DNA from: a virus
Reading direction: 5' to 3' (one strand)
Virus record (IMG/VR): IMGVR_UViG_3300030688_000053
Length of the DNA stretch: 44,999 nucleotides
Shown: one piece after another, positions 4,341 through 44,527 of the stretch
Position numbering within the stretch: the stretch's first letter is position 1
Layout of the letters: each line of letters starts with the position of its first letter
The notes under the pieces: model-generated
What the model saw: only the letters and a program-made list of their open reading frames with translations
What the model was told of the DNA's origin: nothing
The model's database searches: none
Made by a program: the position numbers and the translations under genes

Positions 4341-4381
4341 TTTCTTCTCCTTGGTTAGTGCTGCGTTGAATAAATTATTTC

Positions 4382-6168: not shown

Positions 6169-6169
6169 A

Positions 6170-8752: not shown

Positions 8753-8829
8753 TGCGTCACCAGAATGGCGATGCCGCAGAACGCCAAGAACATCAGGGCG
8801 GCGGCTGTTGAAATGGAGATGTGGCTCAT
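8749..8829 (-). CDS. Possible 26-aa hydrophobic micro-protein
   Basis: My translation is MSHISISTAAALMFLAFCGIAILVTQ. Its ATG overlaps the upstream stop (ATGA). Its stop overlaps the proposed methyltransferase GTG (GTGA). Confidence 0.3.
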   Translation of the reverse strand: MSHISISTAAALMFLAFCGIAILVTQ

Positions 8830-13032: not shown

Positions 13033-13812
13033 ATGAAAAACGAAGTCATTGAAATGAAGGACGAGCAGTTTTCCGGGCCTTACCTCAACCAGGCTGGAGT
13101 CGTCACCGTGAAAAGTAGCGACTCGCAGACAATGATGCGGATGATCGAAGTCGCCATGTCGAAACCGGATTTCGATATCGTCAAGTTGCAGCAGCTTCTC
13201 GAAGTAAAAGAGCGCTGGGACGCTGCCGAATCAAAGACGGCTTTCGTTGAATCAATGACCGCGTTCAAGGCTGAGCCGCTGGAAATTTTCAAGCGAAAGG
13301 AAGTCGGCTACAAGACCAAGGAAGGCGACTTTGTTGGCTACAAGCATGCCGAGCTTTCCGACGTCACCGATGTCGTCGGCCCTGCCATGGCAAAGCGCCA
13401 GCTTAGTTTCCGCTGGAACATCCGCCAAGAATCCGGGACGATCTCTGTTGACTGCATCGTCACGCATGTGCGCGGTCATTCGGAAATGGTAACGATGGTC
13501 GGAGCTCCTGACACCTCGGGAAAGAAGAACGCCATTCAACAGGTGGCATCTACCATCACCTACCTGCAGCGTTACACGTTGCTTGCGGCTACCGGTATGT
13601 CGACCAAGGGGCAGGATGACGATGCGGCAAGCTCAGCGCCAGAGGTCGAGGAAAAGCCCAAGGCAGCGCCGACGAAAATCGGCAAAAAAGGTCTTGAGGC
13701 CGCAATCGAATCCATCAAGAAAGGGGAATTCACTGTCGAACAATTGCGGGCGAATTACATTCTCACCGACGATCAATGGACAGTCGTCAATAATGAGGTG
13801 AAGCGTGGTTAA
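13033..13812 (+). CDS. ERF-family-like single-strand annealing protein
   Basis: YKHAELSDVTDVVGPAM and ASTITYLQRYTLLAATGMSTKGQDDD resemble ERF-family motifs from memory. An exonuclease gene follows directly. Confidence 0.6.
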   Translation: MKNEVIEMKDEQFSGPYLNQAGVVTVKSSDSQTMMRMIEVAMSKPDFDIVKLQQLLEVKERWDAAESKTAFVESMTAFKAEPLEIFKRKEVGYKTKEGDFVGYKHAELSDVTDVVGPAMAKRQLSFRWNIRQESGTISVDCIVTHVRGHSEMVTMVGAPDTSGKKNAIQQVASTITYLQRYTLLAATGMSTKGQDDDAASSAPEVEEKPKAAPTKIGKKGLEAAIESIKKGEFTVEQLRANYILTDDQWTVVNNEVKRG

Positions 13813-23237: not shown

Positions 23238-24830
23238 TTAGTTTCCAATCGCAACCGCGAAAAAATTCAGCGAAGATGCTGATGCTTGAGATGCAAAACT
23301 CACCAACGTTGGGTTGAGTGCTGAAATGGTGTAAGGCGTAGCTGCCCCTACTGTTTGTGTGAATGCTGTAATCGTCACTCCCAATATAGCATTGGGAAAT
23401 GCTATGGGAAAATTATGCGTGAGGCCAGTTCCAGCGCTTGCGCTAGTGGTGCCGGATTGCCATTGAATAATTAATCCACTGGGCAATTTTTGGTAGCCCG
23501 CAGATGACTTTACACTGGCAAAACTAGCTGAAAGTCCGATCTGTGCTGAACCAGCAACTGCGTACCAGCCGGAAGCTCCGTTGCTTTCTAGCGTCAGCGT
23601 GTCTCCATTACCAAGCGCGAGCGTAGTCGAAGTTGTAGAACCCGTGATGAGCGTGTCACTACCGGCGCGCGTTATCGTCGCAATACCGGTATTGATATTC
23701 AGGAATTCGATACGCTTGCCTGCGGCCACCGCTGATGCGGCGGGCAAAGTCAGTGCAATTGCCGACGCAGAATTCGCCAGTACAGTTCCACCCGCTACGC
23801 CAGCAGCAAGCGTACTTGTAGTGATAGCAGCTGTAATGCCATTGGCTTGTAGTCCCAGAGTTATAACCCCAGTCGCCGGGTTCTGCATCACCAGCGCGCC
23901 ATAGGTCGGGCTGTAGTTGTATTCGCCAGGGTAGCCAGCGCCTGGGTTATCACCGGCCACAAGCGCCTGATTATTACCCTTGACGATAGGGACCGAAGCC
24001 TGAACCGTGCCGCCGAGTGTCAGGACTGCCGTCATGGCGCCGGTATTCGCTGCCGCCGCGATGATCGTGAACGGCTGGCCGCTTGCGTATGCCGTTGGGC
24101 TCGTTGCAAATGAAGCGGTAATTGCATTCGCAGTTCCTCCAGCAGTGGCTATCCCCAATGTACCAGATACGACTTGTCCAGCCTGAATCGCATGTCCTGA
24201 CGAGGTTGCGGCCGGCACAGCTACTTCTGCGCGCGTGCAGGTCACCAATTCAAATCCGGAATAGGTAGAGTTCCACGCGATCTTCACATTTCCATTTGCG
24301 ACAATTTCATTTGCTGCTAGCGCTCCATTTGATCCGGTGAGCGGATATGATGTCCCATTGACAGTAATAGTGCTAGCACCAGTGTTGGCAGCAATTGCCT
24401 TGAAATAAAGCAGGGTTCCAGCGGCTGGAGTACCAGAGATGGCAGGCGAAGGGGCGATTGCATATGCATTGGCCGATCCGGTATCGGGGGCATAGCTTGG
24501 CGAATTTGATTGCGCCTGGCTGGCCTGTACGAATTCGCTCATCGTCTGAGCGGTCGGGCCGCAGAGTACGATATCACCAGCTGACCACGACAGAGGAGAT
24601 GATCCTCGCGTCACACCTGATACCGTGTCGCCCGAGATGGTGGTGTACATGATTACTTCATGGATGGAACCGGTCAATTGATCGGTGAAGATCAGACTCC
24701 CAAACTGGCCGGCCGCTGGCTGCGGTAAAGTTGCGCCAGCTCCCGAAGCAACAGAGAATGTTGTCGATGAAGGACCAATAGACCCCGCCAGTGTCGTGTT
24801 GACAAAATTAGAAAAAACTTCAGTGGTCAT
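23238..24830 (-). CDS. Tail fibre protein
   Basis: 530 aa, Gly/Ala/Thr/Ser-rich. The C-terminus GYQKLPSGLIIQWQSG resembles a conserved tail-fibre tip motif. The ATG at 24830 has GAGGG upstream. Confidence 0.75.
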   Translation of the reverse strand: MTTEVFSNFVNTTLAGSIGPSSTTFSVASGAGATLPQPAAGQFGSLIFTDQLTGSIHEVIMYTTISGDTVSGVTRGSSPLSWSAGDIVLCGPTAQTMSEFVQASQAQSNSPSYAPDTGSANAYAIAPSPAISGTPAAGTLLYFKAIAANTGASTITVNGTSYPLTGSNGALAANEIVANGNVKIAWNSTYSGFELVTCTRAEVAVPAATSSGHAIQAGQVVSGTLGIATAGGTANAITASFATSPTAYASGQPFTIIAAAANTGAMTAVLTLGGTVQASVPIVKGNNQALVAGDNPGAGYPGEYNYSPTYGALVMQNPATGVITLGLQANGITAAITTSTLAAGVAGGTVLANSASAIALTLPAASAVAAGKRIEFLNINTGIATITRAGSDTLITGSTTSTTLALGNGDTLTLESNGASGWYAVAGSAQIGLSASFASVKSSAGYQKLPSGLIIQWQSGTTSASAGTGLTHNFPIAFPNAILGVTITAFTQTVGAATPYTISALNPTLVSFASQASASSLNFFAVAIGN

Positions 24831-24831
24831 A

Positions 24832-25038
24832 TTATTGCCCTCGTTTAAATTTTTCTGCAGCATTTTTGATTCGTGCAGAATCGCCGCTAGTTACGGCATC
24901 CATGTACGAACTAACGGAATCATTTTCGCCCAATACCTTTTTCGCATCTGTCGGTGCAATCCCGGCTTTCTTTGCGATTTTTGGATTATGCTCCACCGCT
25001 TCCATTAGGCGGCGTTGTGCTTCGGACTTTGCAGGCAT
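24832..25038 (-). CDS. Small DUF3008-like protein
   Basis: The MPAKSEAQRRLM N-terminus resembles the DUF3008 start, from memory. 68 aa. Confidence 0.5.
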   Translation of the reverse strand: MPAKSEAQRRLMEAVEHNPKIAKKAGIAPTDAKKVLGENDSVSSYMDAVTSGDSARIKNAAEKFKRGQ

Positions 25039-25753: not shown

Positions 25754-26965
25754 TTATCCTTGAACGATAACGATCCCGGCGCCCTGCGGATCGGTATAAA
25801 GATAGCTCTCATTATCGCCTGCAATGACGCCAGTTCCTGCGGTCGGAGGAACCGTTACTCCATTGATATTCACCACAAACGCCATGCGTGTGAGTAAGGA
25901 TTCCGGCAAAATTGATTCGATGGCAGTTTGAAATGTTCGCTGCAATACGAATAAGTTCATCGGCTGCGTGGCTTGGATCGAATTGACGTAGTTGACCAGC
26001 GCAGGCGTGGCAAGCTGGGCCACGGCAGAATTTGAAACAAGATTGGTGCTGTTGGTATTCCAAGTGATTGACATCGTTACGGTTTGCTGTGGCGGCGTAA
26101 CATAAGTCAGTGAATATGTATCAGGATAATCATTGATTGATACCGTAATATTGCGAGCTGTTGTAGCCGATCCGACAAGCGAGGAGATATCAAATAATGC
26201 GCTGTAAATCGCATATGCGACTTGATAGGGATCGCCGCCGCCAACAATCACTTCCCAGCCAGCTGGGGAGATAGATTGCTTGACAGCGATAAGTCTTGGT
26301 TGCACTCCTTGTATCTCAGAAACCAAGGTTTTAAGATAAGTCGGCATGCCTTGTGATGCGGCCCTCTGCGCCTGCAGCACGCGCGCCCGATATGATTGCC
26401 AAGTTTCCTCTGTCGCGCTACCTGGAGTCCCAGTATTTGGATTTGTAACCGTTATAGTGATCCCGCTTGGCACAGACGTAATCAATTGCGTGACGCTTCT
26501 GGCTGGGACTGCCCATGTTCCAGAAACTGACGCAAGAGCATATAAGCTCGATGAACTTCCCCCCATTCCAATGATTCCGCCGTCAACAATTGTGTATTGG
26601 TAATTACCATCCGAAACAACAAAACCAATCCCAATCACAAAACCTGCTGGGCCGGAAAATACAACGTTTACGCTTGTGTTCGTCGTCGCGTTTATTGGAA
26701 CTCCGCTTTGCTCTCCGATAGCCAGAAGTAAGGGAATATTCGCTTGTGCCGGAGTAATGCTATTGATCAGATCAACTCGCGCCGCATCGATTTCTATTAG
26801 TCCGCCGGTTGCAGTGCTCGCAAGATCCTCAACAAGCGAAGCTGGGAGTGTTGTTGTCAAGCCAGGAGCAAGAGCAGTCGCCGCATCCACCAGCGCCGCG
26901 CGCAAGTCGATTGGCGCCGTTGGCTGGGCTCCATCTTGTCCGATAATAATAGGGATATCGCTCAT
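25754..26965 (-). CDS. Baseplate J-like wedge protein (by position and size)
   Basis: 403 aa, following a 122-aa gp25/W-size gene. Assignment is by gene order in a contractile-tail baseplate module. Confidence 0.5.
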   Translation of the reverse strand: MSDIPIIIGQDGAQPTAPIDLRAALVDAATALAPGLTTTLPASLVEDLASTATGGLIEIDAARVDLINSITPAQANIPLLLAIGEQSGVPINATTNTSVNVVFSGPAGFVIGIGFVVSDGNYQYTIVDGGIIGMGGSSSSLYALASVSGTWAVPARSVTQLITSVPSGITITVTNPNTGTPGSATEETWQSYRARVLQAQRAASQGMPTYLKTLVSEIQGVQPRLIAVKQSISPAGWEVIVGGGDPYQVAYAIYSALFDISSLVGSATTARNITVSINDYPDTYSLTYVTPPQQTVTMSITWNTNSTNLVSNSAVAQLATPALVNYVNSIQATQPMNLFVLQRTFQTAIESILPESLLTRMAFVVNINGVTVPPTAGTGVIAGDNESYLYTDPQGAGIVIVQG

Positions 26966-27337: not shown

Positions 27338-28059
27338 GGTGCGATGCTCCCTCCGGTGTATGGCGTGTTCGGCGCAGTTGTTATGGCAAGCGCGCCTTGT
27401 GCTGTATGTTGATGGCTATTTGCCCACGCGACAAAAGCCGCCCATGCTGCATGCATAATGGCTGGTGATGTGTTTGCTGTACCGTCCGTCATAGTTCCAT
27501 TGGAGCCATTTAATGACCATCCAGCCGGGGTCAATTCTAATACAGTTGTGCCAACCGTGACCTGAAAACTATTCGGCGTGACAATGGTAATGCTGGTCGG
27601 CGTCAACAGAAAAGTTGACGCGCTTGATGCGTCTCGAAGAGTTACTCCCTCCGGTCCATAGATCGTCACCACGGAATGATCCACATCTTGCCATGCAGTA
27701 TTTCCAATAGGCAAAAAAGTTAGTGCTGACAAGTTTGCAGGCTGGGCGAGTGTCGCAGTTCCGGCCGACTGCCCGGAAATACTTGCTATACTCGCCGCCG
27801 CTGGTATCAGCAAACCCTTTTCGCCCTCCTGAATAGGATAGCGCACATATTGAGCCCCATAGACCGGTGCCTTGATATTTTGAAGCGTGAAGCCGCTAGA
27901 CACTTCAAATTTCACCAGAGCGATGCCTTCAGATACCCATGAGATAAATGAGCATGGTAGCGCGCGACCGGTCATCTGAATCTGATCAAGCGCCTTGCTC
28001 TCCGCAAAACGGTTCATTGCATCAGAGAACGGCTTTTTTTGTGCGTTTGTCGAACTCAT
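27334..28059 (-). CDS. Baseplate central spike/plug candidate
   Basis: 241 aa, overlapping starts and stops with both neighbours. Positional assignment. Confidence 0.4.
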   Translation of the reverse strand: MSSTNAQKKPFSDAMNRFAESKALDQIQMTGRALPCSFISWVSEGIALVKFEVSSGFTLQNIKAPVYGAQYVRYPIQEGEKGLLIPAAASIASISGQSAGTATLAQPANLSALTFLPIGNTAWQDVDHSVVTIYGPEGVTLRDASSASTFLLTPTSITIVTPNSFQVTVGTTVLELTPAGWSLNGSNGTMTDGTANTSPAIMHAAWAAFVAWANSHQHTAQGALAITTAPNTPYTGGSIAP

Positions 28060-29003
28060 GATAGGACCGCATGCGCGTCAAATACTGTCACCCAAGCGTC
28101 TGCTGTTGGTTGCCGGGCATTACCTACATGGCGGATTTTGTCCACCTGGAAAACACCGGCGAAAACAGAGCCTTGTTTGAATTGAGAATAGGACTTTTGT
28201 GACAGCGTGGATTGCCCTGGCGGCATCTGAATGTAGTCGCCGACCGCGATATCGCCGCGCATGGCCGTTTTGAAATTGATCTGAAACAGGCTGAGCCATG
28301 TTGGTTGCCCGATCAGGTCGACAAAGGCGATGGGCGTCGGTGCCGTGGGTGTAGTGCCATCGTAGACATAAAATGTCCCGCTACGGATCGTGATTGATAC
28401 GCCCTGATAGTTGCCTCCGATGATGTCCTGGCTGGCCTGCTTCACATAGCTGGCAAACTGTCCAATCGTCTGGTAATACCCAGGTGCATCGTGGCCCAAG
28501 ACAAGGTTATCGGAGATATTGATGTTGTATGTGTAGCTGGGGAAAGCAATCGACAAAGTAGCCTTGATTGCATCGGCCAGCTTTGTGCCAGCGCCCCACG
28601 CTAGCACAAGGTTTTTTTCGTCTGCAATGGTGCCGCCATCAAACTGAACAATCATATCCAGCGTTTGAGTTGTTCCCTGCCAATTCCCAAATGCATTTTG
28701 TATTACGCCCTGCAATAGCAATCCTTGCTGCTTTGGATTCGACAGAGGCAGTCCCTTGGACATTCCACCAAACACGAGGATGCGGACACCATTAAAATTG
28801 AATCCTTGGGAGATAGCCGCTATGGAGATTCCCCATAGTCGTACAAACGCAGACCCGACAGGTAATGCCATTTCGACTACTGGAATATCCAATTCCACAT
28901 TCAAATAGTTAGGGTCAAACTTCCCATTAGGCATTGTCGTTATCGACTTCCCTATTTGATCCCCTGTACCAGGATCTTGAAAAATGATTTCGTAATATCT
29001 CAA
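28056..29003 (-). CDS. Baseplate hub/tail protein (by position)
   Basis: 315 aa, in the operon between the tape measure and the baseplate. Confidence 0.45.
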   Translation of the reverse strand: MRYYEIIFQDPGTGDQIGKSITTMPNGKFDPNYLNVELDIPVVEMALPVGSAFVRLWGISIAAISQGFNFNGVRILVFGGMSKGLPLSNPKQQGLLLQGVIQNAFGNWQGTTQTLDMIVQFDGGTIADEKNLVLAWGAGTKLADAIKATLSIAFPSYTYNINISDNLVLGHDAPGYYQTIGQFASYVKQASQDIIGGNYQGVSITIRSGTFYVYDGTTPTAPTPIAFVDLIGQPTWLSLFQINFKTAMRGDIAVGDYIQMPPGQSTLSQKSYSQFKQGSVFAGVFQVDKIRHVGNARQPTADAWVTVFDAHAVLS

Positions 29004-30011: not shown

Positions 30012-31784
30012 TTAATACGCCAATTGGCTAGAAATAATATTCACGTTGCCGCCGGTGTTGTCATAGATCGACACGGTAGCGCCGCCTTTCGCATAAACTG
30101 TCGGCGGATTAGTCTTACTCAGGTATCCACTTGTCTCGGCCGGCAGATGGTTTTTCCAGTCAGCGCCATGCTTGGCGATCGATTTGTCCAGATTGCCTTC
30201 GCCCCAATTATAGGCCGCGCGCGCCTTCTCGTCGTCGCCCTTGTAATACTTCCGCAGGTTGGACAGTTTCTGTGCGGCGACTGCGGCAGATTCCTCAAGG
30301 TTATTCGGGTCTTTGAGCCCATATTCTTTCGCGGTTTTATCCATGAAGCCGAAATGGCCTTTAGCACCAACCGGTGAAAGCATTTTCTTGCCGCGCGATG
30401 ATTCAGCCATCCAAATTCGATCAAGCTCTCCCACCGCAAGTTGATATTTCTTCTCTAGAAACGAAAATTTCGCAGCTGCATTGGCTTTATTTGGTATTTC
30501 CGATAGATTGCCGCTTACGCTAGATTTTTCCTTTAGGCTTTTTTGATAATCATCATCAAATTTCCCATGCAGATTCCACCATGCAGGATGAAATGTAGTT
30601 TTCCCAGGCGTGCGATTTTCTGCTTTCTTTTGCTGCTCTTCTTTTTGGAGTTCGTACCAAGACTTTATCTTCCCCTTTTCAGAAGGAGTTTCTTTCGTTG
30701 GCAAATATCCGAAGAATTTAAGGATGTCGCCAATAGCTTTGCCGAACGCCTTCACGCCATCAATCGCGGCTTTGAAATTCTCCTGCGCCTCGGACGATCC
30801 CAGATAATTTGCGGCTTTCTCGATTCCACCGGCAAATTCGCTGATCCATTTTCCGATTTCAGGATTGCGCAATGCCACTTTGAGCCATTCAGCAAACGAT
30901 GCGGACAGTTTCGAAATGACGGGTGCCAGCGGCTCCAGGCCATCAATGAATACAGCCTGAATCTTTTCGCCGGCCCGCGTCAGTTGCGCATTCAGGTCTT
31001 GCCACTTGCGCAGGGTAGCGTCGGAGTTTCCGAGCTCTTGGCGGTCGGACTGGTATTGCGAGGATGCTTTTTGCAGTTCTTCAGGCGATAGTTTGGACAG
31101 GCGCGTCAGCGTAGCGATGTCAGCGAACTGCGTTAGGCCGCGCGCTTCGGCTCCCTGCACGGTGCCCCCGCCTTGCTTGAATGCTTGGACGAGACGCGGC
31201 AGCAGTTCCGGCAGCATTTCAGCCGGCGACTGAGAATTGATCTGACGCTGATTGAAGCCCAGCGAGGATAGCGTCCAGCGCTTGGAAAGGTCGCGCTGCG
31301 CCTCATTGATGCCACCCAGCGTTGAGTCGGCGTCGATATACCGGTTGTAGTTCGTGCGCGCGGCGCGCAGGTCGCCGGACGAGATGCCGAAGCCCTGCGA
31401 CTGCCGGCGCGCATTGTCGGCAGACCCAGCCAGACGGCCGATGCCGAACAAGCCGCCCGCGCCCAACAGGCCGCCAACCACGCCGCCAATCGACAGCATG
31501 CGCAGAAGAGACTTCACCGAGTTGGCGAGATTGCTGGCGATGTTTTTGGTCCAGCCGGCGACCTTCTTGAAGGAGGCGACCGACTTGCCAGCGGCAGACG
31601 ACATCGAGCGGACAGAGGCCGCGAACCCAGCGGCAGATTTGGCGCTCTTGGAGATTTCCCCGTTTGCCTTGGCCCAGTCGGAGGACTGTTTTTTTACCGC
31701 GTCTGCATATTCCTGGTAATCCTTCTGGAATTTGACGAATGCCGCGTCGTCAACATCAACGGTAATAATTGGCTTGTTGCTCAC
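30012..31784 (-). CDS. Tail tape measure protein with a C-terminal lytic transglycosylase (SLT) domain
   Basis: 590 aa. Gly-rich hydrophobic segment IGGVVGGLLGAGGLFGIGRLAG. SLT-like WMAESSRGKKMLSPVGAKGHFGFMDKTAKEYG. The gene follows the chaperone pair. Confidence 0.8.
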   Translation of the reverse strand: MSNKPIITVDVDDAAFVKFQKDYQEYADAVKKQSSDWAKANGEISKSAKSAAGFAASVRSMSSAAGKSVASFKKVAGWTKNIASNLANSVKSLLRMLSIGGVVGGLLGAGGLFGIGRLAGSADNARRQSQGFGISSGDLRAARTNYNRYIDADSTLGGINEAQRDLSKRWTLSSLGFNQRQINSQSPAEMLPELLPRLVQAFKQGGGTVQGAEARGLTQFADIATLTRLSKLSPEELQKASSQYQSDRQELGNSDATLRKWQDLNAQLTRAGEKIQAVFIDGLEPLAPVISKLSASFAEWLKVALRNPEIGKWISEFAGGIEKAANYLGSSEAQENFKAAIDGVKAFGKAIGDILKFFGYLPTKETPSEKGKIKSWYELQKEEQQKKAENRTPGKTTFHPAWWNLHGKFDDDYQKSLKEKSSVSGNLSEIPNKANAAAKFSFLEKKYQLAVGELDRIWMAESSRGKKMLSPVGAKGHFGFMDKTAKEYGLKDPNNLEESAAVAAQKLSNLRKYYKGDDEKARAAYNWGEGNLDKSIAKHGADWKNHLPAETSGYLSKTNPPTVYAKGGATVSIYDNTGGNVNIISSQLAY

Positions 31785-32952: not shown

Positions 32953-34296
32953 TTAGGCCGTGGCAAAGTCGGTCACGTTCATGTTGAAAATAATGGTCAT
33001 AAAGCCGAGCTGAGGCGTGAACTCCAGCGACAGCCCATTGTAGACGCCTTGCGCATAGTCATTCGGGTTCTGCGTTGTGTAGTCGCCGAATGATGTTGCG
33101 TTGACTAGCGGGCCGGATGCGGTACCCAGCACCATGCCGAATGATATGCCCGAATTTACCACGTTCTGCGCGCGTTTTTGCAGGCGCACAATACCGTTCT
33201 GATTGTAGTAGAGCGGATTGATCGTGTTGTTAGAGCCGTTGATGATTTCATTCGCCAACGCCAGCTTCAGGTTGATCTGCATCCAATCAACTGCATACCA
33301 GTAGTTGAACGGCTTGCCGTCCATTGTCACGCCCCACTTGAGCAGCGTGTTGGCAATGCCGCCTTCGGCACCGGTAGCAATGTAATTGACATATGCCTGT
33401 TTCAATGCGACTTGCTGTGGGCCGGTCAGGGCGTCGGCAGTCACGCCTAGAGCATAGCGGAACTGCATCGGCGGAACCTTGTTGGTGGCGCTTGGCTGCT
33501 GAACAACGCAATTATAGCCAAGAACGGACGCGTCGAATTCGCCTTGGCCGAAATCGGCGGCAGTTGGCCGCATGACAAATGCTGATTTAATACCATTAAA
33601 TAACGCCCACACAGCAGGATCATTTGCGGCTTGAATGATGAAATAAACCATGCTTGTAGTGCTGGCATTGTTCCGGCATACCGTTGCCAAGGAAGTTGCT
33701 GCAGTAGTGTTTGCAGCCCACTCCAGAGGGCATTGATAGGTATAAAACGCCAGTGGGTTCGCTGTCACATAAGCAGCTAGTGCGGAAATGCCATCAGCAG
33801 CATTTCCGTTCCCAAATTCCAGAACATAGACTGGCGTTGCCGATCCTTGGGCAAACCATGTTGTTGCCATCGCCATGATTTCCGCGACATCGCCATCGGT
33901 CACTGTGCCGATTGTTGTCGTGGCGCCGGGGCTGCTGATGAGCGGATAGGTAAACGTGCTCGCGCCAGTGATGGTCGCCTGAACCAATCCGTTGTAGCCG
34001 GTTGGCACGAATCCTGCAATTGTCAGCGGGATAGTTTCTCCGCTAGGGAATCCATGCGGGGCCGTCGTGGTCACAGTCACGACGCTGGACGCCCATACAG
34101 CAGATGTTACAGTTTGTGCGCCGGCCAGTAATGGCGTCAAGTCGGACAACTGAGTAAGGATCGAACTTGATCCTGGCGGAAGGATAGTTCCGCCCTGCGA
34201 GATAATGGCCGCTGTCCGCTGCAATTGGCTCGGCACTGCTGCCAGCGTTTGCGTGACATTTACGACAACAATGTCAGTTTGTGTTGATGTTGCCAT
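32953..34296 (-). CDS. Tail sheath protein (by position and size)
   Basis: 447 aa. It is followed by the tube-size gene, the chaperone pair and the tape measure, which is the contractile-tail gene order. Confidence 0.6.
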   Translation of the reverse strand: MATSTQTDIVVVNVTQTLAAVPSQLQRTAAIISQGGTILPPGSSSILTQLSDLTPLLAGAQTVTSAVWASSVVTVTTTAPHGFPSGETIPLTIAGFVPTGYNGLVQATITGASTFTYPLISSPGATTTIGTVTDGDVAEIMAMATTWFAQGSATPVYVLEFGNGNAADGISALAAYVTANPLAFYTYQCPLEWAANTTAATSLATVCRNNASTTSMVYFIIQAANDPAVWALFNGIKSAFVMRPTAADFGQGEFDASVLGYNCVVQQPSATNKVPPMQFRYALGVTADALTGPQQVALKQAYVNYIATGAEGGIANTLLKWGVTMDGKPFNYWYAVDWMQINLKLALANEIINGSNNTINPLYYNQNGIVRLQKRAQNVVNSGISFGMVLGTASGPLVNATSFGDYTTQNPNDYAQGVYNGLSLEFTPQLGFMTIIFNMNVTDFATA

Positions 34297-37045: not shown

Positions 37046-38065
37046 TTATTGGTAAGGAATGCTCAGGATGGTCAGCGCTTCAGGACGAACCTGCCAACCC
37101 GGAGTAACGCGCATTTCGGCCACGATGTCAATCGCGCCGCCAGCGATCGGCGTCGGGATTTCGCGTGGTGCCGCCATGTCGGACAGCAGCAGGGCAGTCG
37201 CCGACAGGTTCGGAGTCAGTTTTGCAAACTCGTTCGTGTCGATGCGGTTGACGTTTTGCTGTTCGATTTCCGGGATGTTGATCAACACGGCATCGGTGCC
37301 GCCAGCGCCCTGACCCATCAAGGAGTCATCGTAGCACCATTCGATCAGGTCCGAATTCGATTCCGCCACCGAGCTGACAACGCCGGTGGTGGAAGCCGAA
37401 CCCGCGCCGGTGCGTTGGAACTGCACCAGTTGGACGATGTTCTGGTATTCCATAGGGCCCAGGATGCGCTGAGGACCGCAGATGGTCAGCTTGCGGCCGA
37501 TACCCAACTGCATGATGCGCGTCTTCAGGGCGGAGATCAGTCCGAGGAAGAAGAACGCCAGTTCGCCATTGTCGTAGGTCGCCAGCGTGGTGTTGCCGTT
37601 GCTGTCCGGCGGCAGAGTCACCGCAGTGGCGCCAGCGGTGTTCAGCAAGCCTTCGCCGTTCGCCGATTGGAAGCCGCCCAGCAGACCGTTGCGGATCGTC
37701 TGAAAGTGGCCCTGACGCATCGCCAAGCGGTTTGCTTCAACTAGGTTGATACCCCATTGACCGGCTGCGGCTTGGTCATGGTGATCATACTCAGTGCGGT
37801 TGCGCAGCAGGTAGGTAGGCGTCGAGATCATGGAACTTGTGATCATCGCGCTTGGCAGTTGATTTGCTGCAGACTGGCCGCCAGCAGTTTGCGTGCGCAC
37901 GTCTAGTACTTTGGCGTAAACAGCCATAGTACCCTCGCTCAGTCGCACCATAGGACCATTGGTCGCCAGAAGATTGAATGCACCCGATGCCTGTTGGAAA
38001 GGCATGATGATTTCGGGCAAAATGTAATTCGGGTTGACCGTTACATAGCTTGGTGTGATTGCCAT
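37046..38065 (-). CDS. Major capsid protein
   Basis: 339 aa. The gene is followed by a terminator and preceded by the scaffold-position and decoration-size genes. Strong RBS context. Confidence 0.7.
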   Translation of the reverse strand: MAITPSYVTVNPNYILPEIIMPFQQASGAFNLLATNGPMVRLSEGTMAVYAKVLDVRTQTAGGQSAANQLPSAMITSSMISTPTYLLRNRTEYDHHDQAAAGQWGINLVEANRLAMRQGHFQTIRNGLLGGFQSANGEGLLNTAGATAVTLPPDSNGNTTLATYDNGELAFFFLGLISALKTRIMQLGIGRKLTICGPQRILGPMEYQNIVQLVQFQRTGAGSASTTGVVSSVAESNSDLIEWCYDDSLMGQGAGGTDAVLINIPEIEQQNVNRIDTNEFAKLTPNLSATALLLSDMAAPREIPTPIAGGAIDIVAEMRVTPGWQVRPEALTILSIPYQ

Positions 38066-38080: not shown

Positions 38081-38686
38081 TTAGATTTCAACCAGCGCGC
38101 ATGCGCCGGAAGTGTTCCAGGTTGCGAAACCGGTGCCAGAATTGTACGACACGGTTTTGCAGTTCGCGGTGTAGATTTTCAGGATATGGACCGGCAGAGC
38201 ATTGGTCGCAAATGCGACAATTTTCTGGTTGGTGAAATCCCAGGAAACCTGCGATGTGATGATTGTGCCGTCCAAATTCACCAGCGCAGGGTCGATTTGC
38301 AGCGCGATGCGTGCGCCGCTGCCCAGACGGTAGAAGTTGACGCGGCCGCCGTTGTTCACCAGAGGCACCGGCGATTGCGGGGTGTTCACGGCCGAATAGT
38401 TCTGGTCGAACACCGAGAAGCCGGTGATGTTGGCGAATGCCGCTGCGCGCAGGACGTTGCCGCCCAGCGCCTGGTTGTTCAGAACGGTCGTGGCGCCAGG
38501 GATATTTTCCTGGATCGCAATACCGCCCCACATCGGCAGCGTTTCGGTGCCGGCCAGCACGCCGCCTGCGAGGGCGAAGCGCGTTGCCGGATCGGCCATC
38601 GCCGTGCCCTGCACCAGGCCATCGGAATAAACGCCGAAGGTGCCGGGCGCGTTGGTTGTAGCATACGGATTCAGATTGATAGACAT
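38081..38686 (-). CDS. Head protein (decoration or second capsid component, by position)
   Basis: 201 aa, between the scaffold-position gene and the major capsid gene. Confidence 0.5.
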   Translation of the reverse strand: MSINLNPYATTNAPGTFGVYSDGLVQGTAMADPATRFALAGGVLAGTETLPMWGGIAIQENIPGATTVLNNQALGGNVLRAAAFANITGFSVFDQNYSAVNTPQSPVPLVNNGGRVNFYRLGSGARIALQIDPALVNLDGTIITSQVSWDFTNQKIVAFATNALPVHILKIYTANCKTVSYNSGTGFATWNTSGACALVEI

Positions 38687-38689
38687 GTC

Positions 38690-40378
38690 TTACGCCTCCT
38701 TGTTGAAGCCGCTTGCCTTGCGGCTCGGAGCGACGAATTGACCCCAGCACGCCATGGTATCGCCGACAAACTCGGTGATTTCACGGCCCGATTCGTCGCG
38801 GCGTTTGACCTGGCGCAACTGACCAGCGCTGATTTCGGTCGGACGGCTTGCAACCTTGGTGGCGTCGGCGAAAATCGCAGCTTCAGCCAGACCGAACGCC
38901 TTGGTGTCAGCGGCGGCGATCGCTTGCAGGTTGACTTCCTTGTAGGCCGGGCTGTGCACTTGCAGCTTGCGCGCCATGCGCAGACGGTATGCGGTAGGCT
39001 TTTCGCCCAGCATAGGCTTGGTCGAGTGAGCTGGCATGCCCAGAGCGTGCGCGACGGAATCGGCCTTGTTTTCCGCGTCAGCCATTGCATCAGCTTCGTC
39101 GTCGGACAGCGGCTCCAGAGCAGTTTCGACGCCGCCTACACGATTGTTCAATGCGGCTTCTGCATCCTTGCGGGCCTGCTCTTCCTTGACGGCCTTTTCT
39201 TCGTCAGCCTTGACGACATGGGCGACCGAGGCGTCAGCTTTTTCAACCGGCTTCTCAGCAGGCTTCTCGGTGTTTTTGCCTTCCAGCGAATCCATGCGGG
39301 AAGTCATCGAATCCATGAAAGCCTTAGCCCATGGTGGCGCTTCGTCAGAGTCCTTCTTTGCTGCCGCAGCGGCTTCTGCCTCTGCAGCTTTTTTGGCTTC
39401 TTCAGCCGCGATTTCGTCAGGCATTATTGCTCCTAAATTATCAGATTTGACGCCGGCTGGTTGCCCGCCTTTGTCCCAAACCCCTTGCATGCAGATTGCG
39501 AGGTGATCAATCAGCTCTGGGTTCCCCTCAACCAATACCGGTGTTCCGTCAGCGAGAGTAATTGTACTATTTTTTGTCTTGTCAAGGAAAACAACATTTG
39601 GAGAAGTTGAGAGTTGGGCGGTATCCAGCAATTCACCAATGGCTTTGTCGTAAATCCGCGCAATCGTCCACACCTCATCGCCAGCAATATAAGGCATCGC
39701 GGAGGTTCCTACAATCCTTTCGGCGAATTCTTGCGAGGTGAGGGCCGGTGCTTCGGTGTGGAGCACGATCACCGGCAGCCCATTGCAACGCGCTAGGAAT
39801 TCTTCCGTCAGGTAAATCTCGGGATCGCGCCAGGTCACCTCTTGCTCTATTGGGTCGCCCGGATTGCGCACGGCGATTCCGGTACCGGTGATGCGCAGGG
39901 CATACAGCCACATGTTGACGAAGCGCTGCGGGCTGGGCAGGATGCCGTCACGCATGGCCTGCATGACATCGGTTTCGGTTTGGCCCATTTGCAACAGGCG
40001 TTCGGTCGATGGACGGTCAAACATCGCCTTCAGGCCCGGATGTAGATCATCGGCCATGGCGGTGATATCGTGCCCGCGTACCCACTGATGGCCGACATGC
40101 TCATCATTGAGCGTCACATCGGCACCATCCGGCCATGCCGCAATGTGCGTGACGAAATTCCCATCATTGGCGATCTCGCGCAGGCTGGCCGGATCGACCG
40201 TGACACCGATTTCTTCCATGGCTTCGCGCGCGGCTGCCATCGGCGCATCTTCGCCGTCCTCGATATGGCCGCCCGGGAGACCCCAAGTATTCGGATGATC
40301 GTCGGCAGTGGGCGAACGGCGCAGAACGAGCGTTTGCCCGTCCTTGATAAACATAATCCCCGCAGCAGTAGGCGTCAT
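38690..40378 (-). CDS. Nudix hydrolase domain fused to the scaffold/prohead-protease-position protein
   Basis: A perfect Nudix box lies at aa 37-59: G HIEDG E DAPMAAA RE A M EE I G V (Gx5Ex7REUxEExGU). The downstream 400 aa include the Ala/Glu/Lys-rich stretch AAEEAKKAAEAEAAAAAKKD. The ATG overlaps the stop of the MuF-like gene (ATGA). Confidence 0.8.
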   Translation of the reverse strand: MTPTAAGIMFIKDGQTLVLRRSPTADDHPNTWGLPGGHIEDGEDAPMAAAREAMEEIGVTVDPASLREIANDGNFVTHIAAWPDGADVTLNDEHVGHQWVRGHDITAMADDLHPGLKAMFDRPSTERLLQMGQTETDVMQAMRDGILPSPQRFVNMWLYALRITGTGIAVRNPGDPIEQEVTWRDPEIYLTEEFLARCNGLPVIVLHTEAPALTSQEFAERIVGTSAMPYIAGDEVWTIARIYDKAIGELLDTAQLSTSPNVVFLDKTKNSTITLADGTPVLVEGNPELIDHLAICMQGVWDKGGQPAGVKSDNLGAIMPDEIAAEEAKKAAEAEAAAAAKKDSDEAPPWAKAFMDSMTSRMDSLEGKNTEKPAEKPVEKADASVAHVVKADEEKAVKEEQARKDAEAALNNRVGGVETALEPLSDDEADAMADAENKADSVAHALGMPAHSTKPMLGEKPTAYRLRMARKLQVHSPAYKEVNLQAIAAADTKAFGLAEAAIFADATKVASRPTEISAGQLRQVKRRDESGREITEFVGDTMACWGQFVAPSRKASGFNKEA

Positions 40379-41184
40379 TTTTTCTTCGCGTCGGCAATCT
40401 TCTGCCGTCCTTTTTCTGTCAAATATTCATCTGGCAAGCTGCTGACAGTATAGACCCAGTGGCCGCTACATTTGCAAAAAACCTCTTCGGCCGGCCGGGT
40501 AATGTCGTCCACGTAGCCATGCACCGGCTTGATCAGCCCCTGTTTCAGCGCCCACGACCCTGGCACAAGGTAGATCAGTCCGTCGCGCTCCTTGTGGTCG
40601 GGTCGGTAGTTGTAGCCCGGCTGGCGCCATCGGGAGTGCCAACGCATGGCGATTGCGTTGCCATCCATGGCGATCGTCTCAGCCAGCGCGGAAACGAACT
40701 TGGCACCCTGATCGATGTGGATACGGCGTTCTTCGAAAGGCAATCGCTGCAGCGGCTTGTAGATCGATGCTTTGACCTCGCGCTTATCCACCACCTCGCT
40801 GCCGCCGGCCGGCACGCTTGTCGCCCAGCCCGAGAACCGCGCCAGCGTATCGTCAATGCGCTGGCCCTTGCGCAGCTTGATCAGGTTGGCGGACGCGGCG
40901 ACCCGGTTGCTCAACTCTTGCTGCAGCTTCGGCTTGATCATGTCCACCGTGAAGCGCGACACGCCAGGGTGCACCTTGGCGAGCGCTGGAGCGGTCAATG
41001 CCTTGTTGTAAACGCCCGACAGAAGGCGGCGTAGGGCATCGTCCACGTTCGCCGACCCGGCCGCCTGGCTTGCCGCCGCCGTGCGCAACTTCATCAACCA
41101 TCCATCGAGGCGCGCCTGCGAGTCATATCCGTGGTCGGCCATGTCGTTGATGGCCTCGGTCAGGATGTCGTAAAACGAGGCCAT
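40375..41184 (-). CDS. Minor head protein (Mu F / SPP1 gp7-like)
   Basis: It directly follows the portal gene. The C-terminal FCKCSGHW resembles the conserved Cys/His motif of MuF-family proteins, from memory. Confidence 0.6.
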   Translation of the reverse strand: MASFYDILTEAINDMADHGYDSQARLDGWLMKLRTAAASQAAGSANVDDALRRLLSGVYNKALTAPALAKVHPGVSRFTVDMIKPKLQQELSNRVAASANLIKLRKGQRIDDTLARFSGWATSVPAGGSEVVDKREVKASIYKPLQRLPFEERRIHIDQGAKFVSALAETIAMDGNAIAMRWHSRWRQPGYNYRPDHKERDGLIYLVPGSWALKQGLIKPVHGYVDDITRPAEEVFCKCSGHWVYTVSSLPDEYLTEKGRQKIADAKKK

Positions 41185-42587
41185 TACTCGGCGTCCACTT
41201 CGCCGCCGGCCATTGGTGGCGGTGGCGGCTCATAGGCTATCAGGGCGTCAATGTCCAGATTCAGCGATTCCGGCATCAGGCGCTTGAACTGGTTGAAATT
41301 CTCCTGCGCCCAGCGGAACATCTCGGCTTTGTTTTCCGGGTCTAAGTGCGGCACCATGGAATCGACTGCGGCAATGATCGCCTCGGCGCGCACCTTGTCC
41401 AGCTTGGACAGTTCGCTTTCCGGTTCTTCCAGCAGTTGAGGCCATTCGTAAGCAAAGGCATTGCGCATGCCAGCAAACCACGTCTGATACGCCACGCCCT
41501 TCCATTGCGGGCACTCAGCCTGCAGGGTTTCGTAGAATTCCTTGGACCAAGCCAAATGCATGATCAGCGGGTCAAGAAACTGGAAACAGTCGGCGAGCTC
41601 GTCACGGATGCCGTCCACGTAGCGGGAAACGACCTTAGCATCCTCGGTGCCGTCCGCGAAGCCTTGCGCGAAGGTTTCCGAATTCAGGATGATGGACGGC
41701 ATGTCCGCCGCCGTGGCGATGTTCTCGATCACGTTGGTGCGCGCCGTGGTCATCGCGTCATTGACGTTGGTGAGGTTGAGCGTGCTAGCTTCGTCCTTCT
41801 CGCCGATGTTGATTACGTTGCCGGTGGTGGCCTGCTTGAATGTCTGCCGCTTCTTCGTCAGGAAGAAATCCAGCACGTTGTCCACGATAGAGCCTGGCTG
41901 TTCCGCCTTGAGCACGATGACGCCGGCCTTGACGGTCACGAAGTTGTCCGTGAACATCGACTGAATGAAGGTGCGCAGCGGGAAGAGGGCGCGCTGATAG
42001 ACCGAACGCCCGACGTAGCCATAAGAGGATGTCGTGTACTGGATGAATAGCGGGCGCTCATTCTGAATCACTGCACTGCGCGCGCGCGGGTAATCCACGC
42101 CGCTGGCAGACAGCTTGCTCACCTTCAGGAAGTCGGGGGAATTCGGGTTTTGGTCAGTAACCATGCTGCCGGCCATGACGAGCGGGTCCAGCACGTTGAA
42201 ATAGATTTCACCGTCGGGGATCTCGAATTTGTCGATCAGGGCGTCCGGCGGCTTCCCGGCCAAGCCCCAGATGCAGCCGGCGGCGCCATACATGCGCGCT
42301 TGACCCTTCCACGACTTGATAACGTCGTTCATCTTGTGGCCGGTCCAGACCGTGGCGAACCGGTCACGCAGGCGCTTCTCATACGGCCCAGCGGCCGAAA
42401 TCGTGATGTTGCGCGGCTTGTACATCGCCATGTCCACAGGGAAATCAACCATCTTCTTGCCGATGGGGTGATAGGCGTAGATCAGCTTGCAGAGCTCATA
42501 GGATGCCTCTGCCCCGGGCTGTAGCTCATCAGCCTCAAGAATCCGCATCAAGGGATTTGTCACAGGTGTGATGCTGATTTCTGCCAT
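41184..42587 (-). CDS. Portal protein
   Basis: 467 aa, between the terminase region and the head morphogenesis genes. Assignment is by size and position. Confidence 0.7.
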   Translation of the reverse strand: MAEISITPVTNPLMRILEADELQPGAEASYELCKLIYAYHPIGKKMVDFPVDMAMYKPRNITISAAGPYEKRLRDRFATVWTGHKMNDVIKSWKGQARMYGAAGCIWGLAGKPPDALIDKFEIPDGEIYFNVLDPLVMAGSMVTDQNPNSPDFLKVSKLSASGVDYPRARSAVIQNERPLFIQYTTSSYGYVGRSVYQRALFPLRTFIQSMFTDNFVTVKAGVIVLKAEQPGSIVDNVLDFFLTKKRQTFKQATTGNVINIGEKDEASTLNLTNVNDAMTTARTNVIENIATAADMPSIILNSETFAQGFADGTEDAKVVSRYVDGIRDELADCFQFLDPLIMHLAWSKEFYETLQAECPQWKGVAYQTWFAGMRNAFAYEWPQLLEEPESELSKLDKVRAEAIIAAVDSMVPHLDPENKAEMFRWAQENFNQFKRLMPESLNLDIDALIAYEPPPPPMAGGEVDAE

Positions 42588-42613: not shown

Positions 42614-43132
42614 TCAACCCGTCTTAATTCTAACCCCATGGTTTGAAAACTCCGCATGGGTCTCGTTTCTGTAACTATGGACAAAGCAGCAAGCCTCAAA
42701 AAAATCAGATGTATAGTGATTTTTTCGCTTCCCATTCATTTGCACGTATGCATGCCATAACTGCTGATGCTTGGCCCAACTGACGCCTTTGCACCCGGAT
42801 GTGTTGTTGCATTGGGTTTTAATGTTGAATTTATTCTGCGTCGATGTCGACTCCCGCAAATTACGCGCTCGGTTATCAGCCCTATGTCCGTTTTCATGGT
42901 CAATCTCATTAACTGGATAGACTCCGTACATATAAAGCCATGCCAACCTGTGCGCATAGAGCAAGCGCCCATTTATGCCGATTTGCCTATAGCCAATTAT
43001 TATATTCACATTACCTGCAACACTACCAGCCGACTTGCTGCCTCTTGATACTTTCCACTTGAAAACCCCGGTCAGCGGGTCATAACTCAAGATTTCCTTG
43101 AGTTCGGATTGTGATAGCATCGGCTTATTCAT
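42614..43132 (-). CDS. HNH homing endonuclease with an AP2-like C-terminal domain, inserted between terL and portal
   Basis: LSYDPLTGVFKWK...GYRQIGINGRLLYAHRLAW...NEIDHENGHRADNRARNLRE, then CKGVSW...WHAYVQMNGKR. The region is visibly more AT-rich than its flanks. Confidence 0.85.
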   Translation of the reverse strand: MNKPMLSQSELKEILSYDPLTGVFKWKVSRGSKSAGSVAGNVNIIIGYRQIGINGRLLYAHRLAWLYMYGVYPVNEIDHENGHRADNRARNLRESTSTQNKFNIKTQCNNTSGCKGVSWAKHQQLWHAYVQMNGKRKNHYTSDFFEACCFVHSYRNETHAEFSNHGVRIKTG

Positions 43133-43204: not shown

Positions 43205-44527
43205 CTAGTATCCGCGCGTATTGCCTAATGCAATTGATATTGCATAACAGAATGTGTCCAAAAGGTCGTCGCTCTGGTCCTTGACACCGATGCGGAACCC
43301 GGTTACCTGCGTCAAAAAATGGTTTCTTGAGATTTCCTTGTATTTCTTGACCTTTTCGTAAGCATACCTGCAAATCTTGACTTCGCCGCGATATACATAG
43401 CCGGATATGCTGATTGCGCGCTCATCCTTGCCCATGGCCGTGAGCTTACCGTCAATTGGTCTTGCATTCCAGCCCCGGCGCTTAGCCTGCTGCAACAGAA
43501 TGATGCCAGAGGCCTGATCCTCAATGAACACCCCAAGCGTGGTACCCATGCGTGCGCCTGTCATGGTCGCCAGTTCCTCCAGACGCTCATAGACGGTCGG
43601 CAGCCACGACTCCAGCAGCGATCCCTCAATTTGCACAATATCCCAATCCAGCACGATTAGGCGCCCTTCGCGTCCCATCACCGCCGGCATGAGCGCGTAG
43701 AACGATACGCCGGTGCCGTCATTCTTGGAGCCTGTCTTGATCGCCGTATCGATGACGGCGAAAACAGCATCGCACTTCGTCGGCATGTCGTAGGGATTGC
43801 CAGCAGCGTCGAGCAGGCTGGAAACACTGAAGAACGCGGTTCCCGACCAATCCACGAACTCAGCCAAGTATTCCTGCTGGTAGACCAGTGGGTGGTTGTC
43901 GTTCTTGAGCTTCAGCAACTCCGCCACGCGGCGCTCCATCCATTCTTCCGGCGTCTCACCCGGCCTGATCAGCGGCAGCAGCGGGTTGTCAGCGGTCGGA
44001 GCGTGGTGGTCTTTGAACCCGAATTTCTCGACGTCGTTGAGCAGATAGAAGAAATTGTCCGCTGCGGTTCCGTTCGGCGTGGACAATACCCAGGCGCGGC
44101 CACCCAAGTCAAACAGCGTCGGCTTGATCGATCGTTCCCAGATTTCCACCATGTTTGGCTTGGTGAAGGCGGCCTCATCAATGATGACATCGTGGTATTT
44201 CCGAGATCGGCCGGCACGCTCGTTTTCCAGTGACCAGAAGTCAATGCGGCCACCGGTGGTCGTTTCCATGCGGCCTTCGATCTTGCTGGCCTGCTTCTTG
44301 ATGGGCGTGATGATGTCCAGCAGCTCGTTGTAAGCCTCGGACTGGATCTTGTAGTCAGGGGCAAACCAGCCTACAGAACGCCCCTTGGCTGCCTGCGAGC
44401 CTCCGACCGTCTTGCCGAATTCCGTTTTTCCCCAACGCCGACCACACCGAACCCGGTTGAACCGCGCCCGCTCGTTCCAGACGCGAACTTGGCCGGCATG
44501 CAGCGTGGGCAGGATGACATTCGGCAT
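43205..44527 (-). CDS. terL: Terminase large subunit
   Basis: Walker A-like CGRRWGKTEFG, Walker B-like VIIDEAAF, and a C-terminal nuclease-size domain. It lies directly downstream of TerS. Confidence 0.9.
   Translation of the reverse strand: MPNVILPTLHAGQVRVWNERARFNRVRCGRRWGKTEFGKTVGGSQAAKGRSVGWFAPDYKIQSEAYNELLDIITPIKKQASKIEGRMETTTGGRIDFWSLENERAGRSRKYHDVIIDEAAFTKPNMVEIWERSIKPTLFDLGGRAWVLSTPNGTAADNFFYLLNDVEKFGFKDHHAPTADNPLLPLIRPGETPEEWMERRVAELLKLKNDNHPLVYQQEYLAEFVDWSGTAFFSVSSLLDAAGNPYDMPTKCDAVFAVIDTAIKTGSKNDGTGVSFYALMPAVMGREGRLIVLDWDIVQIEGSLLESWLPTVYERLEELATMTGARMGTTLGVFIEDQASGIILLQQAKRRGWNARPIDGKLTAMGKDERAISISGYVYRGEVKICRYAYEKVKKYKEISRNHFLTQVTGFRIGVKDQSDDLLDTFCYAISIALGNTRGY

Follow-up and report, generated by a model that had tools for sequence, protein, structure and literature searches.

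A Nudix hydrolase fused to a putative prohead protease in a temperate-type myovirus: a candidate for enzyme loading into the phage head

Here we describe a 562-residue protein encoded in IMG/VR virus record IMGVR_UViG_3300030688_000053, a stretch of 44,999 nucleotides that is referred to below, at its full length, as the window. The protein combines an N-terminal Nudix hydrolase domain, a DUF2213-type prohead protease domain and a scaffold-like tail, an architecture assigned from sequence comparisons and structure prediction. We read it as the maturation protease of the phage, with a scaffold-like tail and a Nudix enzyme aboard at the N-terminus. With modest confidence we favor a role in which this head-maturation protease/scaffold of a temperate-type myovirus carries an intact Nudix hydrolase that would be enclosed in the head, retained there and ejected into the next host.

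Fusions of this kind have been described before. Iyer, Burroughs, Anantharaman and Aravind reported in 2022 that Nudix domains are fused to MuF proteins, portal proteins and a capsid-processing serine peptidase, and hypothesized in a purely computational study that such domains are packaged in the head and injected (PMC9503650). The window protein falls in the same architecture class ('Nudix + capsid-protein-processing serine peptidase') and shares its late head-module context. The portal-type fusion is exemplified by PHROG 15528, in which a Nudix segment belongs to a portal protein. An initial annotation of this DNA, made from the sequence alone, had left open whether the architecture was catalogued. 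It is, as PHROG 6216, in several GenBank phages and by Iyer et al. (PMC9503650). Both the architecture and the loading hypothesis are already published as in silico inference, and the present gene is a further member of a widespread class. What is added here is a quantified distribution and defined domain boundaries. The gene is a clean, testable case, and cultured relatives exist.

Domain architecture of the protein

The features of the protein are listed with their positions in the window (ORF, open reading frame; pLDDT, predicted local distance difference test).

38690-40378, minus strand: whole ORF with ATG start, 562 uninterrupted codons, containing Nudix domain, DUF2213 prohead protease, helical spacer and C-terminal domain (ORF list; phrog_6216)
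40004-40378, minus strand: Nudix hydrolase domain, residues 1-125 (Pfam NUDIX; AlphaFold2; Foldseek)
40202-40270, minus strand: Nudix box, residues 37-59, GHIEDGEDAPMAAAREAMEEIGV (translation of the ORF)
39989-40018, minus strand: short variable inter-domain linker, residues 121-130 (alignment gaps; dip in pLDDT; start of a Nudix-less homologue)
39425-39988, minus strand: predicted DUF2213-type prohead (capsid maturation) serine-protease domain, residues 131-318 (AlphaFold2; Foldseek against BFVD and PDB; PF09979)
39758-39760, minus strand: His207, candidate catalytic histidine (invariant; codon confirmed on the DNA)
39602-39604, minus strand: Ser259 in S257-T258-S259-P260, candidate nucleophile (invariant; codon confirmed on the DNA)
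39503-39505, minus strand: His292, with Asp291, candidate third catalytic residue (97 of 97 homologues; at least 90% in 150 representatives)
39107-39424, minus strand: Ala/Glu/Lys-rich helical spacer, residues 319-424, scaffold-like and variable in length (long helices of low pLDDT; alignment insertions)
38693-39106, minus strand: conserved C-terminal alpha/beta domain, residues 425-562 (AlphaFold2; conserved residues)

A letter-perfect Nudix box at residues 37-59 and a Nudix fold around it had been proposed in the initial annotation, and both hold. The box residues G37-H-I-E-D-G-E43...R51-E52-A-M-E55-E56-I-G58-V59 lie in exact register with GX5EX7REUXEEXGU. Residues 3-117 score 58.9 bits with the Pfam NUDIX family (PF00293; gathering threshold 21.1, E = 7e-16), which rules out a chance match. 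Among 97 homologues of about 40% identity none departs from G37, E43, R51, E52 or E55, and 96 have E56. These homologues were the input for a full-length AlphaFold2 model (mean pLDDT 82.6), in which the block means of the Nudix part are 91-98 over residues 1-100 and 71-88 over residues 101-130. Only Nudix enzymes were matched when this model was compared with the PDB by Foldseek. The matches include 3grn, 3r03, 5zrh, the diadenosine tetraphosphate (Ap4A) hydrolases 1ktg and 5cfi, and MutT2, with template-modelling (TM) scores of about 0.7 (TM(target) 0.70-0.75 for 3grn, 3r03, 5cfi and 5zrh). Profile and model together identify the N-terminal region as a genuine alpha/beta/alpha Nudix fold in which no catalytic residue is missing, and the domain is predicted to be catalytically intact.

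The initial annotation assigned roughly 140 residues to the Nudix part; its N-terminal position stands and its length is revised. The linker is gapped at residues 122-129 in about half of the 97 homologues, and pLDDT is about 71 there. The Nudix-less homologue of Escherichia phage Rac-SA53 starts at the residue aligned to M131. This start fixes the module boundary, and the Nudix module ends near residue 125.

A Met is found at the Nudix/protease junction in 54 of the 97 fusion proteins (M131 in the window, codon 39986-39988), directly before an invariant T-E. Its codon may derive from the ancestral start codon of an unfused protease. An internal start that would yield an unfused protease, as in lambda C/Nu3 and T4 gene 21, was considered and rejected. 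No Shine-Dalgarno-like sequence precedes M131, a Met is lacking at this place in the Yersinia and Pantoea phage genes, and no ribosome-binding site was seen before the junction in any of three genes inspected. A cleavage site of the T4 type (L/I-x-E) between the two domains was also rejected. The residues ahead of the invariant E135 are Q-T in the window and, in most relatives, M-T, and because Nudix-less proteins conserve E135 too, it is not readable as a site at which the Nudix domain is released.

Foldseek on the full-length model gave Nudix matches alone, and residues 131-562 were therefore modelled separately (pLDDT 84). Residues 131-318 form a compact, beta-rich domain with pLDDT mostly 86-98, falling to 74 in the loop of residues 171-180 and to 68 at the C-terminal edge. 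Against BFVD, which holds predicted viral structures, this region gave 83 matches at E <= 1e-3, down to 1e-22. These are labelled 'DUF2213 domain-containing protein', 'Prohead protease' (Shigella phage 2019SD1, Pseudomonas phage POR1), 'Prohead serine protease' and 'Capsid maturation protease'. The best non-spurious PDB matches were T4 gp21 (5jbl; E = 7e-3, probability 0.90, TM 0.38) and the assemblins of Kaposi's sarcoma-associated herpesvirus and human cytomegalovirus (probability 0.9-0.98, TM 0.3-0.42). PF09979 (DUF2213) was found in 20 of 22 trimmed homologues (best 1.2e-7), and many full-length homologues carry a precomputed PF09979 match. A sequence-level tie of the middle domain to solved proteases was rejected, as the trimmed-domain profile gave spurious matches only against PDB sequences.

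Four sites in this domain are invariant in the 97 homologues: His207, S257-T258-S259-P260, D291-H292 and W301-D302-K303. The same residues are conserved across 150 representatives clustered at 50% identity, Nudix-less forms included, and His207 and Ser259 are unchanged in all 150. The candidate catalytic residues occur in the order His207, Ser259, His292, as in an assemblin- or gp21-like protease. This order and spacing agree with the pattern of assemblin-type prohead proteases, and the three residues are proposed as a candidate protease triad. T4 gp21, HK97-type proteases and the herpesvirus assemblins give the best, though weak, solved-structure matches for residues 131-318, and resemble the window protein in the His-Ser-His/Asp order and in the location of the gene between portal and capsid. 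They differ in that no sequence-profile similarity is detectable, fold scores are modest and those proteases have no N-terminal enzyme domain.

The spacer (residues 319-424) is predicted as long helices of pLDDT 36-72 and holds most of the alignment insertions. An Ala/Glu/Lys-rich segment had been noted in the initial annotation and is present at about residues 320-420. The scaffold partner proposed there is upheld as a scaffold-like tail in the protease/scaffold slot, whereas the DUF2213-type protease domain of residues 131-318 had been missed. The C-terminal domain has block-mean pLDDT mostly 77-97, and about 54 over the last few residues. It is kept in Nudix-less homologues, with E459, R467, S476 and D505 invariant, and is presumed to be a capsid-interior binding or targeting module. 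In P2 gpO, Mu gpI/Z and lambda C/Nu3 an N-terminal protease is followed by a helical scaffold part and a capsid-binding C-terminus; these proteins belong to other protease families and have no extra enzyme domain.

The genes of the head module lie on the minus strand in the order large terminase (TerL), HNH endonuclease, portal, MuF-like, the 562-residue ORF, a 201-residue gene (p201) and major capsid protein (MCP). The placement of the ORF between the MuF-like and capsid genes, which the initial annotation gave without a strand, is borne out by the ORF list, Pfam and PHROG. No second protease or scaffold candidate turned up among the neighboring head-module genes searched with Pfam and PHROG. 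It is this lack of a rival in the neighborhood, together with the domain evidence, that leads us to read the protein as the maturation protease/scaffold.

Distribution of the fusion and contents of the N-terminal slot

PHROG 6216 spans the protein from end to end (residues 5-559 against positions 4-544 of a 545-position profile, E = 7e-133). Full-length relatives of 38-44% identity were identified by tblastn in the Yersinia vB_YenM_29.18 group, Shewanella vB_Sb_QDWS, Klebsiella vB_Kpn_Chronis, RothC and RothD, and Pantoea PdC23. These are complete Nudix-protease-scaffold proteins from phages of different hosts, and their genes are placed alike: TerL, portal and MuF come first, and the p201 homologue and MCP follow. 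Megablast found no nucleotide-level relatives among deposited phages. In a search of 5.8 billion proteins, 922 matches were found among the 8,000 candidates scored, and almost all of the 120 best span the full length and carry PF00293.

A split arrangement exists in Burkholderia phage Bm1, and the joining of two adjacent genes by a sequencing or assembly frameshift is a general possibility for any such fusion. Here the frame is open through 562 codons. The same continuous protein occurs in seven deposited phage records with at least 80% coverage, in 25 prophage loci and in relatives of 92% and 85% identity from other samples. Because these are independent isolates and assemblies, an artefact is excluded for practical purposes and we assign it a negligible probability. 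The initial annotation had treated the two parts as a single gene, which agrees with conservation of the fusion in hundreds of relatives.

Relatives with and without the N-terminal extension, the comparison of which had been suggested in the initial annotation, were both found. A query of the protease and tail alone gave 1,796 representatives at E <= 1e-3 in a library clustered at 50% identity. The 150 best, a sample biased to the nearest relatives of the query, were sorted with local hidden Markov models. Their N-termini carry Nudix only in 91 cases, another domain plus Nudix in 5 (96 Nudix-bearing in total), a non-Nudix extension in 6 and nothing in 48. A prophage survey, limited to one genome per bacterial species, yielded 48 loci. 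Nudix is present in 25, with Paraburkholderia, Caballeronia, Rhizobiales, Acetobacteraceae, Nitrospira, Rhodanobacter, Acidobacteria, Planctomycetes and Chloroflexi among the hosts; the 23 Nudix-less loci are mostly from Enterobacterales. By local tblastn, about 45 of 51 loci are arranged as portal, MuF, [Nudix]protease, p201, capsid, and no separate Nudix gene was found near the Nudix-less loci. On a neighbor-joining tree of the protease part the Nudix state changes 37 times, compared with 44 for shuffled labels, as expected either from very frequent gain and loss or from an unresolved tree.

The Nudix-less DUF2213 proteases of Rac-SA53 (ALP46870; 37% identity over residues 131-561), Bm1 (WVR18065) and the PB1-like phage JJ01 (ORF54) share the homologous protease, the scaffold-like tail and a DUF2184-type capsid gene partner. 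They lack the N-terminal Nudix domain, and Bm1 (L055) has Nudix as a separate gene. This free-standing gene of 142 residues (3998-4426) overlaps the MuF end and is followed by three small ORFs and the DUF2213 'head maturation protease' (5038-6507; PF09979 E = 3e-38). The unfused pairing indicates that the link between Nudix and protease does not depend on fusion.

Annotation of the deposited fusion homologues is inconsistent. They are called 'NUDIX hydrolase', 'glycosyl transferase' or 'hypothetical', and none is called a protease. The Nudix-protease of Yersinia vB_YenM_29.18 (L001 5986-7617) is one labelled 'glycosyl transferase'. The Rac-SA53 protein (L002 6013-7305) is labelled 'TolA protein' with the note 'nudix' even though it has no Nudix domain. 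Proteins of this slot labelled 'NUDIX hydrolase', 'glycosyl transferase', 'TolA' or 'hypothetical' can be re-annotated as head-maturation protease/scaffold. Rac-SA53 also has an operon for an LT-IIa ADP-ribosylating enterotoxin just upstream of the terminase genes.

Other domains stand ahead of Nudix or replace it in some relatives. These are an Alt/VIP2-type ADP-ribosyltransferase (ART; P0043, P0098), LPD3 (P0071), a PBECR1 RNase (P0180), DUF5710 (P0154) and a weakly matched ParB-like nuclease (P0159), and there are several extensions of about 200 residues with no Pfam match. ART, LPD3, DUF5710 and the ParB-like domain are combined with Nudix; PBECR1 is also seen. Three of these, ART, PBECR1 and LPD3, are hallmarks of the 'polyvalent' proteins, for which packing in the virion and injection have been predicted (Iyer et al. 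2017, PMC5512222). The likeness to polyvalent and MuF-toxin proteins (PMC5512222) is that variable effector domains (ART, PBECR1, LPD3, ParB-like) are attached to a head-internal protein. The differences are that the carrier is a prohead protease rather than MuF, that one to three effector domains are present and that there is no zincin-like processing peptidase. By sequence comparison, the modular N-terminal slot is the strongest comparative argument that the slot holds cargo. Since other effector domains occur at the position of Nudix, the capsid-loading idea gains comparative support, and it is reasonable to suppose that Nudix is loaded by fusion to a head-assembly protein.

The extensions of P0149, P0180, P0244 and P0112 start with or repeat a motif like F-x-E-S-(D/E/K)-HPR-x3-G-x-F-G-S-G-G-G that matched no Pfam family. 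This could be a processing or targeting motif common to head-loaded effectors.

The contents of the slot also bear on the suggestion that Nudix is a regulatory or structural pro-domain (a zymogen cap or procapsid spacer) or a nucleotide sensor, with hydrolysis not the selected function. The N-terminus is where a pro-domain would sit, and T4 gp21 and its relatives are synthesized as zymogens that carry propeptides (PMC9026906). However, many relatives have no N-terminal domain or have unrelated enzymes there, so that no specific pro-domain is needed for protease function. Nudix folds do serve as ligand sensors in regulators of the NrtR type (PMC9503650), but sensor Nudix domains usually lose the catalytic residues, and E43, R51, E52, E55 and E56 are invariant or nearly so in the 97 homologues. 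A pro-domain or sensor role is in our estimate quite improbable.

Capsid loading, fate and target of the Nudix domain

From the domain architecture, the conservation of catalytic residues, the gene position and the modular N-terminal slot we infer the following course. The C-terminal domain and the helical spacer would assemble together with the major capsid protein, bringing the protease into the procapsid, by analogy with the behavior of prohead proteases and of protease-scaffold fusions such as T4 gp21 and P2 gpO, and given the gene position. Covalent attachment would then enclose tens of Nudix copies per particle. At maturation the putative His207/Ser259/His292 protease would digest the scaffold-like parts and would probably cut the linker at about residues 121-130. 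The protease could release the Nudix domain, or it could destroy it. The domain of about 14 kDa, if resistant to digestion, would exceed the capsid pores, remain with the DNA and enter the next host on ejection, where it would act ahead of any phage gene expression. In P2 an N-terminal gpO fragment is reported to remain in the mature capsid.

The internal proteins of T4 and its Alt ADP-ribosyltransferase are directed into the prohead core and undergo trimming by gp21; they then remain in the head until ejection, and a T4 head can take up 20-200 copies of an engineered fusion (PMC9026906). An Alt/VIP2-type ART is found within the same polypeptide in some relatives of the window protein, and the T4 enzymes are loaded, processed, kept and ejected as proposed for Nudix here (PMC9026906). 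In T4, by contrast, a removable targeting peptide of about 10 residues is placed on separate proteins, whereas the candidate cargo here is covalently part of the protease/scaffold. No T4-type L/I-x-E capsid-targeting peptide is present at the N-terminus of the window protein, where the first conserved Nudix strand, AAGIMF, starts directly. Loading would thus follow from the covalent tie of the cargo to the protease/scaffold.

In the main rival reading Nudix acts only late, in the producer cell or procapsid, possibly by sanitizing the nucleotide pool or removing a nucleotide signal or toxin made when defense systems sense a head protein, and is then degraded or expelled. Fusion would in that case ensure late stoichiometric co-expression, with no delivery. 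We regard this as possible though rather unlikely. It fits both the self-clearing of HK97-type proteases, which are largely self-digested and lost, and the unfused arrangement of Bm1, where a Nudix gene in the same module shows that covalent loading is unneeded for whatever role the enzyme has in that phage. A free cytoplasmic enzyme, however, has no need of a tether to a capsid-interior protein, and fusion is found in the majority of close relatives (96 of 150). ART, PBECR1 RNase and LPD3 in the same slot also make most sense as injected effectors. Most T4 core fragments do exit the head (PMC9026906). A local counter-measure is conceivable as well, in that a passage of PMC13276650 cites a prohead protease as a reported trigger of the type I cyclic-oligonucleotide-based antiphage signaling system (CBASS). 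This link to CBASS was set aside, as Nudix chemistry cuts pyrophosphate and not the phosphodiester bonds of cyclic oligonucleotide signals.

Several points weigh against packaging and delivery of an active Nudix enzyme by a maturation protease, the course that we favor. The fold similarity of the protease domain to solved structures is weak (E about 7e-3, TM 0.3-0.42), and the BFVD support consists of annotations of predicted structures. The window copy scores 13.3 bits against PF09979 (E = 0.087), under the cut-off of 22. Comparison of the protease-part alignment with T4 gp21 by hhalign gave no sequence signal (probability 0.1%). About a third to a half of the relatives have no Nudix domain, which makes that domain accessory, and sequence comparisons single out no substrate. 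A literature search that left most subscription-journal papers outside its reach found no virion proteomics, enzymology or genetics of any head-module Nudix protein. Finally, an HK97-like protease digests itself and its fragments exit the capsid, so that the Nudix domain could be destroyed or lost.

The initial annotation linked the enzyme to defense signals derived from nicotinamide adenine dinucleotide (NAD), for which no specific support was obtained. A family-profile ranking of solved Nudix enzymes placed NudG (a CTP pyrophosphohydrolase), MutT, RenU and RppH above the ADP-ribose pyrophosphatases (ADPRase 4kyx ranked lower). No NCBIfam equivalog came near its cut-off (NudE 23.9 against 169, NAD diphosphatase 16.5 against 158). 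Iyer et al. 2022 place Nudix domains of this class in a T4 NudE-like clade acting on ADP-ribose or NAD (PMC9503650). The window domain differs in that its alignment with T4 NudE, 30% identity over 64 residues, is confined to the Nudix box, while the NudG/MutT/RppH types are nearest by profile. The sole hint of NAD or ADP-ribose is contextual, from the occasional ART-Nudix-protease architecture in relatives. By sequence the nearest enzymes appear to be minimal Nudix enzymes of the MutT/NudG/RppH/Ap4A type. This similarity makes RNA 5' ends or caps, nucleotide alarmones or defense nucleotides plausible targets; ADP-ribose or NAD derivatives are possible ones. Nudix specificity is not reliably readable from such similarity.

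A broader proposal, which we put forward only tentatively and consider doubtful, is that the N-terminus of DUF2213 prohead proteases is a general natural port for cargo loading, distinct from the T4 targeting peptide. It would operate in many temperate myoviruses of Proteobacteria and other phyla and load tens of effector copies per capsid, a MutT/NudG/RppH-like Nudix being the commonest cargo. Freed by the protease and entering the cell along with the DNA, the cargo would act before phage expression, either by disarming a host response based on nucleotides or by removing the 5' ends of host RNA. To our knowledge, a virion-delivered Nudix enzyme acting in counter-defense or host takeover has not been demonstrated experimentally for any phage. 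If Nudix does travel in the capsid, the family would join T4 Alt and the internal proteins as a second case, and a widespread one, of a ready-made enzyme delivered with phage DNA, and would point to a nucleotide-type target struck within seconds of the start of infection. Protease-tethered loading could also serve as an engineering handle for packing foreign proteins into the heads of temperate phages.

The head module and the remainder of the window

Other genes of the window are as follows.

43205-44527, minus strand: large terminase (neighbor gene)
42614-43132, minus strand: HNH endonuclease of 172 residues, HNH/AP2-type homing (Pfam HNH_3 E = 3e-12; phrog_99 E = 3e-60)
41184-42587, minus strand: portal protein (phrog_146 E = 2e-43; weak Pfam Phage_portal_3 match)
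40375-41184, minus strand: MuF-like head-morphogenesis gene of 269 residues (phrog_324 'head morphogenesis' E = 4e-20)
38081-38686, minus strand: conserved partner gene of 201 residues between the protease and capsid genes (phrog_6268, a function-unknown family, E = 1e-62)
37046-38065, minus strand: major capsid protein of DUF2184/PF09950 type (phrog_6671 E = 5e-139; phrog_264 'major head protein'; weak PF09950 match)
32953-34296: tail sheath
30012-31784: tail protein with lytic transglycosylase domain
28056-29003 and 25754-26965: baseplate hub and wedge
23238-24863: tail fibre
13033-13812: Erf recombinase
8027-8869: DNA methyltransferase
5317-6168: replication initiator

The tail sheath, baseplate proteins, Erf recombinase, replication initiator and DNA methyltransferase indicate a near-complete genome of a temperate-type myovirus.

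The coupling overlap with the upstream head gene reported in the initial annotation is confirmed. Positions 40375-40378 read tcat on the plus strand, where the TGA of the MuF-like gene overlaps the ATG of the 562-residue ORF (ATGA). No Shine-Dalgarno sequence is evident upstream of the ORF start. The overlap and the missing Shine-Dalgarno are together compatible with translational coupling to the MuF-like gene. The public gene call P0001 (554 residues) uses M9. On sequence conservation M1 appears preferable as the start because the N-terminal strand AAGI(L/M)F is conserved across the family (A5 and G7 at least 90%).

The HNH gene between TerL and portal has a GC content of 0.44-0.48, compared with about 0.58-0.61 in its flanks. 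It is missing in the Yersinia, Pantoea and Rac-SA53 relatives, where portal directly follows terminase, and is present in the 92%-identity relative L056. The gene looks like a recent mobile insertion.

A homologue of the 201-residue gene in Pantoea phage PdC23 is labelled 'endosialidase', and PdC23 has a separate Dec protein downstream of the capsid gene. The 'decoration' label given to the 201-residue gene in the initial annotation is at most putative.

Some prophage relatives have a gene for a type IB topoisomerase between MuF and the Nudix-protease (L019 2176-3231, L036 2692-3723), with Topoisom_I matches of E = 1e-17 to 7e-20 and a Top1B_N_bact match. This topoisomerase may be another head-module enzyme. 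The MuF genes of the topoisomerase-type loci (L019 386-2194, L036 666-2432, L024 2132-3829) are longer by about 300 residues and show sub-threshold matches to intein splicing domains, at 24-38 bits against a Pfam cut-off of 35.8.

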